Shown: piece after piece, positions 19,623-59,450 of the stretch
Position numbering within the stretch: position 1 is the stretch's first letter
Layout of the letters: each line of letters starts with the position of its first letter
DNA from: Thermotogota bacterium
GTDB taxonomy: Bacteria; Thermotogota; Thermotogae; Petrotogales; Petrotogaceae
Length of the DNA: 64,000 nt
Direction of reading: 5' to 3'
Assembly (NCBI GenBank): GCA_029780115.1
Contig: JAKOZG010000004.1
Span: forward strand, 248,607 to 312,606
Notes under the pieces: model-generated
What the model saw: the letters and a program-made list of their open reading frames with translations, nothing else
Told to the model about the DNA's origin: nothing
Databases searched by the model: none
Made by a program: the position numbers and the translations under genes

Positions 19623-20600
19623 TTACCCATTTTTCCCTACTTTTATTCTAGGATCTAAAAACCCATATATTAAGTCCAATAATATCATACCCACTATGTA
19701 TATTAGAGTGGTTATTGAGAGATTACCTAGAAGTACTGGTATATCGTTTTGTTGTACTGCAGCCCAATACAAAGTTCCCATGCCCGGCCAACTAAATATA
19801 CCTTCAAATATCAATGCACCAGAAAAAGAATTTAACAAAGATAAAACAGACATTGTTAATAAAGGGGGAGCGGAAGTTCTTAATGCATGTCCATATAAAA
19901 CGGATTTTTCAGGTATTCCACGAGCTCTAGCTGACATTATATAATCTTCTTGTAAATTCACTAAAACTATATTCCTTGTCAAATAAGCTCTTCCCCAGAA
20001 ACGTATAAGAACGAGTGTCATTACAGGTAAAAACATGTGGTACAACACATCCCCAACCCTTTTTAAAAAGGTTTCTGGAGGAGGAACACTGAGTATTCCA
20101 CTAGAGGGGAAAAAAGGAAAAATGAATGCGAAAAGCATGATCATAACTAATCCAACCCACCATGTAGGGAGCCCATAGCATACCATAGTGATTATTGAAG
20201 TTGTCTTATCCATGTATCCTCCAACTTTTTGTGCTTTTCTTATTCCTAACCGTATTCCAAGAAAAATATCTATAATTGTGGCCAAAGTAAAGAGAAGCAA
20301 AGTGTTTGGGACCCTTTCTAATACTATTTTAAAAACATCAGTTTCCCCTTTAAAAGACCGAATCACCATAGATTGTCCGTAATTAAAGGTTAGGGTATCA
20401 ATCCATCTAGAAAAAATCATGGGAATTATTGGTTCTTTTAAAAGATATATGTTACTCACTGCAAACATTATGTTAAAAAGAACCGAATATATAAAAATAA
20501 TTACAACATAAATTACAATTCCCATCAATATTCTTTTAAAAGCATATCTACAATACATTAAATTAACCACCTTCATATGGTTTAATACTACAAAATACAA
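19623..20600 (-). CDS. Orphan oligopeptide/oligosaccharide ABC permease, OppB-like paralog. Downstream of the opp operon terminator.
   Basis: About 80% identical to the OppB at 24098-25159, but lacks that protein's periplasmic loop of about 45 aa. The 5' coding DNA is also similar (ctacttttattctaggatc in both). Confidence 0.8.
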   Translation of the reverse strand: MYFVVLNHMKVVNLMYCRYAFKRILMGIVIYVVIIFIYSVLFNIMFAVSNIYLLKEPIIPMIFSRWIDTLTFNYGQSMVIRSFKGETDVFKIVLERVPNTLLLFTLATIIDIFLGIRLGIRKAQKVGGYMDKTTSIITMVCYGLPTWWVGLVMIMLFAFIFPFFPSSGILSVPPPETFLKRVGDVLYHMFLPVMTLVLIRFWGRAYLTRNIVLVNLQEDYIMSARARGIPEKSVLYGHALRTSAPPLLTMSVLSLLNSFSGALIFEGIFSWPGMGTLYWAAVQQNDIPVLLGNLSITTLIYIVGMILLDLIYGFLDPRIKVGKNG

Positions 20601-24101: not shown

Positions 24102-25159
24102 GCTTTCCCACCTACTTTTATTCTAGGATCCAGGAATCCATAGATTAAATCTAAAACCACAATACCCGCAATATATATTAGGGTAGTTATTGAAAGGTTG
24201 CCTAAAAGTACGGGTATATCATTTTGCTGTACAGCGGCCCAATATAAGTTTCCCATGCCTGGCCAACTAAATATACCCTCAAAAATGAGCGCTCCTGAAA
24301 AAGAGCCTAACAAGGATAAAAGCGACATTGTTAAAATTGGAGGAGCAGACGTTCTTAAAGCATGCCCATATAAAACAGACCTTTCAGGTAACCCACGAGC
24401 TCTTGCAGACATAATAAAATCTTCTTGTAAATTTCCTAAAACTATGTTTCTTGTCAAATAAGCTCGTCCCCAAAATCCAATAAAAACAAGCGTGATTACT
24501 GGTAAAGCCATGTGATACAGTAAATCAACAAATTTTGCAAAAAAAGTTTCAGGTGGTGGAACGCTACTTAAGCCTCCAGAAGGAAATATGGGTATAGAGA
24601 AGGCGAAAAGCATTATCATAACCATTCCAAACCACCACGACGGCAATCCATAAACCGCCATAGTTGCTATTGAAGTGGTTTTGTCCATAATGCCACCAGC
24701 TTTTTGAGCTTTTTTAATTCCTAACCAAACTCCTAATAATATATCTAAAATTATAGATGTTGTAAATAGGATCAACGTGTTAGGTATTCTTTCAACAACA
24801 ATCTTTATAACATCGGTTTCTCCTTTAAAAGATCTCATGATAGTTGATTTGCCGTAATTAAAGGTTAAAGTATCTATAGCTCTCCAGAAAACTCTCGAAA
24901 GTAAAGGGTCGTCAAGGTGATATAAATCCCTAAGTTCTCTAATTCTTCTTTCTCTGTATTCTAATAAATATTGAGGGTCCGTTCCAACTTGAGACATCTT
25001 TAACATTTCTCCATTGACTTGTTCAATTATTTGTCCATTTAGTGTTTCTTCCATTACAGTATTGAAAAGGAAGGAATAAATAAAAATGATTATTACATAA
25101 ATAATAATACCCATAAGGATCCTTCTTATAGCATATCTCCAATACATAAAATCGATCAC
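24098..25159 (-). CDS. oppB: ABC permease, OppB-type.
   Basis: Conserved IMSARARGLPERSV...RTSAPP EAA loop. N-terminal TM and large periplasmic loop. Confidence 0.85.
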   Translation of the reverse strand: MIDFMYWRYAIRRILMGIIIYVIIIFIYSFLFNTVMEETLNGQIIEQVNGEMLKMSQVGTDPQYLLEYRERRIRELRDLYHLDDPLLSRVFWRAIDTLTFNYGKSTIMRSFKGETDVIKIVVERIPNTLILFTTSIILDILLGVWLGIKKAQKAGGIMDKTTSIATMAVYGLPSWWFGMVMIMLFAFSIPIFPSGGLSSVPPPETFFAKFVDLLYHMALPVITLVFIGFWGRAYLTRNIVLGNLQEDFIMSARARGLPERSVLYGHALRTSAPPILTMSLLSLLGSFSGALIFEGIFSWPGMGNLYWAAVQQNDIPVLLGNLSITTLIYIAGIVVLDLIYGFLDPRIKVGGKA

Positions 25160-47625: not shown

Positions 47626-47856
47626 ATGTTGATTTTAAACATCAATCAAGTATTATTGGCGCTGATAGAGACTAAACTTTAGAAGAGGAAAGACATTCTA
47701 AACATAGGATTTTGAATTTATGAAGTTTACATGAGCGGAGCCCTCCTCTTCACCTTCTGCATAAATACCAAAAAAAGCTAAAATTTGAAGCATAAATAGA
47801 ATTAAAGTTTCAGAATTTTTAAAGTGGATATTAATTTCATATTAGGAGGAAAATTT

Positions 47857-56606: not shown

Positions 56607-56699
56607 TGGTTTTTTCCTCCTAAGAATTGATGTTTTATACACTTTGGAAATTCAAAAATCTTTATTTTTAAAGGGTAATAATTGATGAGTTCTTTAACA

Positions 56700-56790
56700 A
56701 ATTCGGTACTTGTACCGAGAGAAGATAAAGGGCTGCCGCCCTTATACCCGTATAAATCTAAAACCTTATTTTTGAAAATCTTTGTTTCTA
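56700..56790 (-). repeat. Copy B of the conserved intergenic element: extended prefix AAAGATTTTCAAAAATAAGGTTTTAG, core, and suffix CGGTACAAGTACCGAATTTG.
   Basis: Shares the GGGCGGCAGCCC hairpin core with copies A, C and D. Shares the prefix with C and the GGTAC...GTACCGAAT suffix with D. Confidence 0.8.
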
Positions 56791-56856
56791 AAGTGTGTAT
56801 TTAGGTTAGTTTAATTATATAATATTTTATAGTGAAGGAAAAATATTTCTACTCCA

Positions 56857-57774
56857 TTAATTTATTTTATTGATTTCATAAGGTGTTTCTTGATATACAT
56901 AATAGTTTAACCAATTGCTAAACAATAAATAAGCGTGGCTTCTCCATTTTACTATTGGTTCCCCATTGGGATCATCATTAGGAAAATAATTTTTTGGAAG
57001 GGGTATATCTAGCCCTTTATTTAAATCTCTTTCATACTCTTTTTTCAAAATTACTGGATCGTATTCCGGATGGCCGGTTACAAATACTTGTCTTCCATCT
57101 ACTTTTTCTATTAAGTATACTCCAGCGTCTACTGATTCAGAAATAATATTTAATTCAGTAATTGGTTCTATATCTTCTCTTTTTATTTCTGTATGTCTTG
57201 AATGAGGTGCCCAAAATATGTCATCAAAACCCCTTACCAATTTACAACTTATATCGTTTACTGAATGCTCAAAAACGCCAAATATTTTTTTATTAACAGG
57301 ATATTTATTTATACCATAGTATAAATATAATCCTGCTTGGGCTCCCCAACAAAGGTGTAAAGTTGAAAAAACATTATTTTTAGACCATTTCATAACTTCT
57401 TTTAATTCTTCCCAATAATCTACTTCTTCAAAATCTAAAGTTTCAACAGGAGCGCCTGTAATAATCAATCCATCAATTTTTTTGTATTTAATTTCAGAAA
57501 ACGTTGTATAAAAAGTCCTAAGGTATTCTTCTGAAGTATTTTTTGATTTGTGAGAGATCATTCTTAATAAAGAAACATTTACTTGTAAAGGTGTGTTTCC
57601 TATAAGTCTAAGGATTTGAGTTTCTGTGACAATTTTTGTGGGCATTAAGTTTAAGATTATAATTTCTAAAGGCCTAATGTCCTGATGTATAGCTCTTTCC
57701 TGAGACATTACGAAAACATTTTCTTTTTTTAATATTTCCCCAGCGGGTAGATTCGCTGGAATGTTTATGGGCAT
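56857..57774 (-). CDS. metA: Homoserine O-acyltransferase (MetA family).
   Basis: [31 protein letters not shown]-terminal hallmark. Length 305 aa. Overlaps metY by 10 nt. Confidence 0.85.
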
Positions 57775-59081
57775 TTACTTCCATGCTCCCTTTGAGAGGT
57801 AGTAGCTTTGGTTAATGATAGGTTTATATCTTCTATTAAATCCTCTATATCTTCTAAACCCACAGATAGTCGAATCATATCCTCTGTAACGCCAGAAGCC
57901 AGCTGTTCCTCTTTAGTCAGTTGTTGGTGAGTAGTAGAAGCTGGATGAATAGCCAAAGATCTGGCATCTCCTACATTGGCAACGTGCTGAAAAAGTTCTA
58001 AATTTTCTATAAATTTTCTTCCTGCTTCTAACCCCCCCTTCAACCCGAAAGTTAAGATTCCTCCAAATCCGTTTTTCAAAAAATTCTTTGAATTATTATA
58101 AGTCTTATGATCCTCTAGTCCTGGATAATTAACCCAGTTAACCCTTGGATCATTTTGTAAATAATGAGCTATTTGTAAAGCGTTAAAACAATGCTTTTGC
58201 ATCCTTAGACTTAAGGTCTCTAAGCCTTGTAATATCAAAAAGGAATTAAAAGGGCTGATTGTGCACCCTATATCTCTTAAAAATTGAGATCTAGCTTTTT
58301 GTATATAAGCGGCATTTCCAAATTTTTCGAAAAAGTTTACACCATGATATGATGGGTCTGGTTCACTTAACTCAGGAAATTTTCCATTGTTCCAATTAAA
58401 GTTACCACTGTCTACAATGATTCCACCAATACAAGTACCATGCCCGTTCATGTACTTGGTTAAAGAATGAATTACTATATCGGCGCCAAATTCAAAAGGT
58501 TTGCATAAATAAGGTGTTGCAAACGTATTATCGACAATTAACGGAATTCCATTTGTATGTGCTATTTTAGATATTTCTTCAAAATTTGGTACAGACAATT
58601 CTGGGTTGCCTATGGTTTCAACATACACTAACTTTGTTTTATTAGATATTTTTTCTTGTAAATCTTGAAGATCTGTAACATGAAAAGAATGTGTTGTTAT
58701 GCCCAGTCTTCCTAATGTATTTTTAAATAGAGTGAAGGTACCTCCATATAGAGAGCTGCTGCACAAAATTTCATCTCCTGCTTTTGTAATATTTAAAACA
58801 GCGATAGTTTCAGCAGCTTGACCAGAGGCGGTAGCCAAAGCTCCTACTCCTCCCTCCAACGCGGCAACACGCTTTTCCAAAACTTCTGTAGTTGGATTTT
58901 CCATTCTTGTATAAATATTTCCACTCTCTTCTAAAGAAAAAAGTCTAACCGCATGATTGGTATCTTTAAATTTGTAAGAGGATGTTTGATAGATCGGAAC
59001 AACATTTGAACCGGTTGTAAGATCTGAATTGTATCCGGCATGAATCATTAAAGTATCGAATTTGTAATTCTTTTTTGTCAT
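57765..59081 (-). CDS. metY: O-acetylhomoserine aminocarboxypropyltransferase (sulfhydrylase), PLP-dependent.
   Basis: PLP-lysine context [12 protein letters not shown]. Cys/Met gamma-synthase family. SD AGGAGGT 7 nt upstream. Confidence 0.85.
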
Positions 59082-59104
59082 ATTTGTACCTCCTTAAAAT
59101 TTGG

Positions 59105-59165
59105 TGAGGGCTACCGCCCTTTAACCCATTTAAATTAAAAACCTTATTTTAAAAATCTTTATTTC
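59105..59165 (-). repeat. Copy C of the conserved intergenic element. It lies immediately upstream of the metY SD.
   Basis: Minus strand: AAAGATTTTTAAAATAAGGTTTTTAATTTAAATGGGTTAAAGGGCGGTAGCCCTCACC. Confidence 0.8.
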
Positions 59166-59194
59166 AAAATAGCATTAATTAGTTCTTTTTTACA

Positions 59195-59262
59195 GATTCG
59201 GTACCCGTAACAAGAAGAGTGAAGAGCTACCGCCCTTTAACCCGTTTAAATTTACAAATCAT
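59195..59262 (-). repeat. Copy D of the conserved intergenic element. The core is slightly degenerate and it carries the GGTACCGAAT suffix.
   Basis: Minus strand: TTTAAACGGGTTAAAGGGCGGTAGCTCTTCACTCTTCTTGTTACGGGTACCGAATCTG. Confidence 0.75.
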
Positions 59263-59288
59263 AAGTTTTTTTGAGTAATAAAAAAATA

Positions 59289-59335: not shown

Positions 59336-59450
59336 CTCCTTATCTCTCAGAATTATTTCTGCAGGATTTGGCACCTTCGCATAATTTGATTTATGCAGGT
59401 TGCCGTGGCTTCATAGGGCCAGTCCCTCCACCACTCTTGATAAGGCGAAA
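59336..59450 (-). ncRNA. SAM-I (S-box) riboswitch aptamer in the metY-metA leader.
   Basis: Minus strand reads CTTATCAAGAGTGGTGGAGGGACTGGCCCTATGAAGCCACGGCAACC...GAAGGTGCCAAATCCTGCAGA...CTGAGAGATAAG. This is a near-textbook match to the S-box consensus, including the P1 helix CTTATC/GATAAG. It is a GC-rich island in AT-rich DNA. Confidence 0.9.

Follow-up and report, generated by a model that had tools for sequence, protein, structure and literature searches.

A SAM-I riboswitch upstream of metY-metA in a Thermotogota bacterium, and an intergenic repeat family in its leader

Introduction

Two kinds of described system come closest to the DNA discussed here. The first is the SAM-I (S-box) riboswitch, Rfam family RF00162, of the met and cys leaders of Bacillus and Clostridia. 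The metY-metA leader in the window (the whole 64,000-nucleotide stretch of DNA that was analyzed) shares with them the aptamer, the kind of gene under control, and a terminator/antiterminator logic built on the 3′ strand of P1, but its host is a Thermotogota bacterium (Defluviitoga). The second is the short intergenic repeat. Pneumococcal BOX and enterobacterial ERIC-type repeats are short non-coding intergenic modules with stable predicted hairpins; they are co-transcribed with their neighbors, and strains differ in how many tandem copies of an internal unit they carry. A repeat family found partly in the metY leader resembles them in being strictly intergenic, in its stable predicted hairpins, and in tandem units whose number varies among strains (one versus two, and four in a metagenome contig, L136). 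The likeness is a functional analogy only: there is no sequence similarity, the unit here consists of two hairpins and a CU-rich linker in 80–120 nt, and all genomes in which it was seen are Defluviitoga-like. REP/BIME elements and MITEs provide further common ground, namely a GC-rich palindrome in A+T-rich intergenic DNA, many copies, and possibly an effect on mRNA ends. A survey of palindromic (REP) repeats includes D. tunisiensis in aggregate counts only (PMC12306157), and our literature search found no description of the repeat family.

A SAM-I riboswitch precedes metY-metA

Two methionine genes lie downstream of the aptamer, both on the minus strand. metY (57765–59081) encodes O-acetylhomoserine sulfhydrylase / homocysteine synthase (TIGR01326, 652 bits against a cut-off of 495), and metA (56857–57774), which overlaps metY by 10 nt, encodes homoserine O-acetyltransferase (NF047918, 497 bits against a cut-off of 460.5). 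These profile matches bear out the gene assignments of an earlier, sequence-only reading of this DNA. A ribosome-binding site (RBS), AAGGAGG, was read from the sequence at 59089–59095 (minus strand), 7 nt before the metY ATG at 59081. The MetY protein is identical to one that NCBI names Defluviitoga sp., and its sequence is found on many anaerobic-digester metagenome contigs.

The S-box call made in the sequence-only reading stands: RF00162 matches 59446–59337 (minus strand) with 100 bits against a gathering score of 44.4 (E = 5e-23). The match covers the full model (positions 1–108 of 108), and no other Rfam family scores above threshold in the 64-kb window. All helices are paired in the cmscan alignment, with three non-canonical positions flagged, and an independent minimum free energy fold (ViennaRNA) reproduces the four-way junction P1–P4. 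Folding 59446–59278 as one piece gives P1–P4 plus a terminator, at −52.9 kcal/mol. This terminator (59323–59281, minus strand), which had also been noticed before, is recovered by a terminator scan and by ViennaRNA (−13.5 kcal/mol): its stem pairs 59323–59310 with 59298–59285, has the core CCUCUU/AAGAGG, and is followed by UUUUUAUUUUUUU, with the U-run at about 59281. An antiterminator (59346–59302, minus strand) appears when the expression platform is folded alone (ViennaRNA, −16.3 kcal/mol at 37 °C). In it, GAGAU.AGGAGAGG (59346–59333), a segment containing the 3′ strand of P1, is base-paired to CCUCUUCU.AUCUU (59315–59302), the 5′ half of the terminator. The antiterminator competes with both P1 and the terminator (−16.3 versus −13.5 kcal/mol for the latter). 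Just upstream of the aptamer lies a putative sigma-70-type promoter (59496–59468, minus strand; TTGACA-17 nt-TAGAAT with a TG extension, 11 of 12 consensus matches), from which transcription is predicted to start a few bases before the aptamer.

The metY loci of relatives were compared at MetY identities of 90% (L127), 87% (L128), 78% (L129 and L130) and 74% (Petrotoga olearia, L132/L133). Rfam places a SAM-I aptamer upstream of metY in L127, L128, L129 and L130, again with methionine genes downstream, and finds no SAM-I aptamer in the metY leader of Petrotoga olearia. L128 and L130 both retain the promoter −35 and the extended −10. In the leader alignment, the terminator hairpin is kept in L127 and L128, and a different complementary hairpin replaces it in L129 and L130. 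As modeled, the leader element is of classical S-box design: it is an ordinary transcription-termination SAM-I riboswitch, which in vivo would terminate in a SAM-dependent manner.

A repeat family in the leader and in other intergenic sites

The distance from the U-run (about 59281) to the metY ATG (59081) is 200 nt, in agreement with the earlier estimate, and about 1.5 tandem repeat units fill the leader between the terminator and the RBS. Both leader copies reported by the sequence-only reading were recovered: an 18-mer, GGGTTAAAGGGCGGTAGC, occurs there twice without mismatch (59243–59226 and 59127–59110, minus strand), and nhmmer envelopes mark the two copies as well. With two to three mismatches the 18-mer is also present at 56749 and 53079 on the minus strand, making four matches where 0.01 would be expected by chance.

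A profile HMM built from the copies and run with nhmmer detects five copies in the window. The first leader copy, C3 (59269–59181, minus strand; E = 2e-17), folds as a near-complete unit, with one mismatch in the first hairpin (GGGC/GCUC), then a CU-rich linker and a second hairpin, CGG-GUA-CCG. The second, C4 (59163–59103, minus strand; E = 6e-17), is the 5′ part of a unit; its first hairpin is intact in the fold (GGG..AGGGC-GGUA-GCCCU..CC) and it ends 8 nt before the RBS, with an nhmmer envelope (59156–59066) that overruns the recognizable copy (end at about 59103) into the RBS and metY. A full unit, C2 (56780–56686, minus strand; E = 1.5e-22), lies between metA and the first gfo/idh/mocA gene. 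Copy C1 (53109–53016, minus strand; E = 4e-18) sits inside the hydrogenase operon, between a 2Fe-2S ferredoxin-like gene and a NuoF-like hydrogenase subunit gene. The fifth copy (47699–47782, plus strand), upstream of a GH20 gene, is weak and decayed (E = 2e-4 and E = 5e-3). A full unit is 80–120 nt long. Its A+T-rich lead-in (AAAGATTTTYAAAAATAAGGTTTT.ATTTAAAY) is followed by a two-tier hairpin (GGG..AGGGC-loop-GCCCU..CCC), then by 12–16 nt of CU-rich linker and by a second hairpin (for example, CGGUAC-AA-GUACCG). Repeat modules reach −12 to −25 kcal/mol in single-sequence folds, and the hairpins are retained in most copies.

All of the copies found lie between ORFs. Strain L001 carries two tandem units of about 120 nt in the metA-gfo spacer (L001:12289–12538) where the window has one (56660–56795), which is direct evidence that copy number changes by tandem duplication or deletion. 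In L136, from a related organism, a four-unit array (755–1087; 81-nt period, 90% matches) fills the spacer from an ABC permease gene to the RBS of a GH30 gene. Further copies lie in a spacer bounded by an ABC permease gene and a GH42 gene, and one upstream of a solute-binding-protein gene is in the opposite orientation. Co-orientation with the flanking genes holds at six of seven independent repeat loci (one-sided p about 0.06, not significant). The family has been sampled in only about 100 kb of related genomes. A metagenome scan with a longer repeat pattern returned three loci, which are no census since the scan missed contigs known to carry the repeat. A scan of genome contigs with GGGTNNAAGGGCGGYAGC was discarded: this pattern is too loose and G+C-rich, and it gave only chance matches in high-GC genomes.

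Several known classes of element were considered for the repeat. First, the palindrome of REP/BIME elements is present but their conserved GTAG/CGTC head is not (the loops read GGTA, GGCA or GACA), and neighboring copies are direct, with no inverted pairs. Second, a MITE seems unlikely. No convincing terminal inverted repeats were seen: an A+T-rich 9-mer (TTCAAAAAT/ATTTTTGAA) flanks C2 but is absent around C3 and C4, and the flanking direct repeat AAAGATTTT equals the start of the next repeat unit. Third, the defining motifs of attC sites, Rex boxes, ECF and sigma-54 promoters, and tRNA fragments are absent on inspection. A permissive Rfam search (E up to 10) over 52.8–59.7 kb placed no family on the repeats, and searches of phage, plasmid and viral collections gave no match to the repeat. 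Near this locus, the digester strain L001 has acquired an insertion of the IS200/IS605 family, with TnpA and TnpB (L001:2706–4180); the repeat HMM does not match this element, the one IS that was checked. In the same strain, dnaE is called as four fragments (L001:5656–8063), possibly through real pseudogenisation or through an assembly or frameshift artefact. A separate, 300-nt direct repeat with 81% identity occurs in the window at 19636–19935 and 24111–24410, in two minus-strand ORFs that are probably paralogous transporter ATPase genes.

Relatives with and without repeats in the metY leader

Between the end of the aptamer and the metY ATG, the window has 256 nt and L127 has 232 nt; in L128 the distance is only 130 nt, and in L129/L130 it is 117 nt. 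The leader alignment places a block of about 135 nt in the window and L127 only, and the repeat HMM finds no copy in the metY leaders of L128 and L129. In those two relatives the terminator is 60–70 nt from the start codon; in the window it is 200 nt away because repeat DNA sits between. The sequence-only reading had called the repeats inserted, and the sister leaders agree with it: the relatives with 87% and 78% MetY identity have no detectable copy, and the 90% relative shares the block. Origin of the leader repeats as inserted DNA is thus supported by leader comparison, with one qualification: the metY and metA trees disagree on the branching of the window, L127 and L128, so that a single insertion, a gain followed by loss in L128, or a more complex history would each fit.

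Repeats of Petrotoga olearia, or the L128 leader itself, looked plausible by eye as homologues of the Defluviitoga repeat but gained no statistical support (nhmmer E > 1). The Petrotoga olearia metY leader has a repeat of its own, TGATTTTGAACTTGGGGTTTTTAAGGGGYTTGCCCTT, in two tandem copies 74 nt apart (L132:5796–5952), with a third copy between two gfo genes (L132:11758–11866). The gfo-nuoE spacer of L127 (L127:5300–5420) holds an extra insert of about 230 nt that is absent from the window; it has G- and C-rich runs (GGGGGGATTATG...CCCTCCCCC) and a motif, CTTGATACAAATACCAAA, that is common to the second-hairpin region of the repeat. Downstream of metA in the window (56805–56850, minus strand), the stretch TTTTTCCTTCACTATAAAATATTATATAATTA is almost identical in L127, within a spacer that has otherwise diverged. 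This stretch may serve as the promoter for the gfo genes, which would put repeat copy C2 in their 5′ UTR.

Conservation of the switch and of the repeats

Parts of the leader have diverged at very different rates. Identity between the window and L127 is 95% in the aptamer, 77% in the linker plus terminator, 65% in the repeat region and 55% at four-fold degenerate sites of metY; between the window and L128, aptamer identity is 92%. An aptamer at 95%, set against repeats at 65% and neutral sites at 55%, points to a riboswitch under selection and repeats that drift. Both leader copies of L127 have a decayed first hairpin. Among six strain-level contigs, the aptamer and terminator are identical, and the transcribed leader is polymorphic in the repeat only. 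Judged by these alignments, the aptamer would have been under strong purifying selection ever since the repeats arrived, and the repeats themselves appear to evolve close to neutrally.

How the leader may work

Most probably, the leader holds a normal, functional termination-type SAM-I riboswitch, and the roughly 1.5 repeat units are passenger DNA in a part of the leader that is transcribed on read-through only. Transcription would start at the strong, conserved promoter (59496–59468) and enter the SAM-I aptamer directly. With SAM bound, P1 would close, the terminator (59323–59285 plus the U-run) would form, and the transcript would end about 200 nt before metY. With no SAM, the 3′ strand of P1 would instead pair with the 5′ half of the terminator, and the resulting antiterminator would allow read-through into metY-metA. 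The 200-nt stretch from terminator to RBS would lie outside the switch and consist of roughly 1.5 units, in tandem, of an intergenic repeat specific to this lineage, in which the hairpins and linker of each unit come with an AT-rich spacer. This family would spread between intergenic sites and shift in copy number by tandem duplication and deletion, and its leader copies would be passengers, present in the read-through mRNA alone and evolving almost neutrally. The sequence-only reading had left two options, termination with the repeats in the regulated leader or a promoter brought in by the insertion. The first is favored by the conservation of the aptamer (95%, versus 55% at four-fold sites), by the conserved promoter, and by the lack of a promoter-like site in the repeats.

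It is also conceivable, though unlikely, that the repeat has a function of its own as an RNA module acting in cis: for example, it might affect processing or stability, terminate some of the transcripts, or control translation in an anti-Shine-Dalgarno manner. It would then exert a second, SAM-independent control on metY-metA and on the other genes that the repeat precedes. Copies from three organisms share the two-hairpin architecture and a CU-rich linker that looks like the anti-SD end of 16S rRNA, and they always lie in 5′ leaders or intercistronic spacers. The co-orientation at six of seven loci and the hairpins kept in most copies hint at some constraint at the RNA level, but that co-orientation is not significant (p about 0.06), and the leader copies diverge almost at the rate of neutral sites, with hairpins broken in L127. 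There is no canonical terminator after metA other than the repeat's own hairpins, and both C2 hairpins pass a lenient terminator scan; the tails behind the hairpins, however, are mixed C/U and not U-runs. Further, the metY leaders of close relatives lack the repeat altogether, and copy number varies between strains. RNAalifold, run on a MAFFT alignment of 13 copies, returned no consensus structure, a null result that arises because the loops are misaligned. A more specific proposal, which we consider quite unlikely, treats the unit with its two hairpins and CU linker as a cis-regulatory RNA of Petrotogaceae that has so far gone undescribed. Acting as an attenuator, as a site of processing or as an anti-SD module, it would be stronger or weaker according to its tandem copy number. 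If this proposal were true, metY-metA would be under serial controls, SAM-I termination and then the repeat element, and strain-level changes in copy number would adjust how strongly sugar, hydrogenase and methionine genes are expressed.

Very unlikely, in our judgment, is the second of the earlier options, in which the repeats brought a promoter and most metY transcripts start past the terminator and escape SAM control. The leader is A+T-rich and has −10-like hexamers (for example, TAAAAT at about 59150), and the repeat in the metA-gfo spacer is near a conserved stretch that contains TATAAT. Nevertheless, a sigma-70 consensus scan of the minus strand from 59100 to 59280 found no site with at least 9 of 12 matches, a result that a weak promoter could escape in DNA of 68% A+T, and the one −35-like hexamer of the inter-copy linker (TTGAAA) is deleted in L127. 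Aptamer identity of 95%, against 55% at neutral sites, holds for both repeat-bearing lineages, which would be unexpected had the switch been bypassed since before their split. The bypass promoter thus found no support. The repeat region likewise contains no ORF of at least 20 aa. That the riboswitch is a decaying relic, with no SAM binding or termination, is extremely improbable: nothing favors it except the unusually long distance to the start codon, and against it stand a full-length 100-bit match with intact helices, an intact terminator/antiterminator pair, an aptamer identical in six strain-level contigs, and 92–95% identity to species-level relatives.

Implications

The riboswitch itself adds nothing new: it is one more well-supported SAM-I instance in Thermotogota. 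Its setting indicates that about 135 nt of foreign structured DNA can be tolerated between the terminator and the RBS of a termination-type riboswitch that nonetheless stays under strong purifying selection. The new item is only the repeat, an undescribed, tandemly expanding family of intergenic repeats in Petrotogaceae, and as a novelty it is minor. The biogas bacterium whose strains differ in this repeat is, however, of industrial importance, and the operons whose leaders contain it are metabolic. Given its tandem expansion, its variation between strains and its position in operon leaders, the repeat could confuse annotation and assembly, and it might modulate expression.
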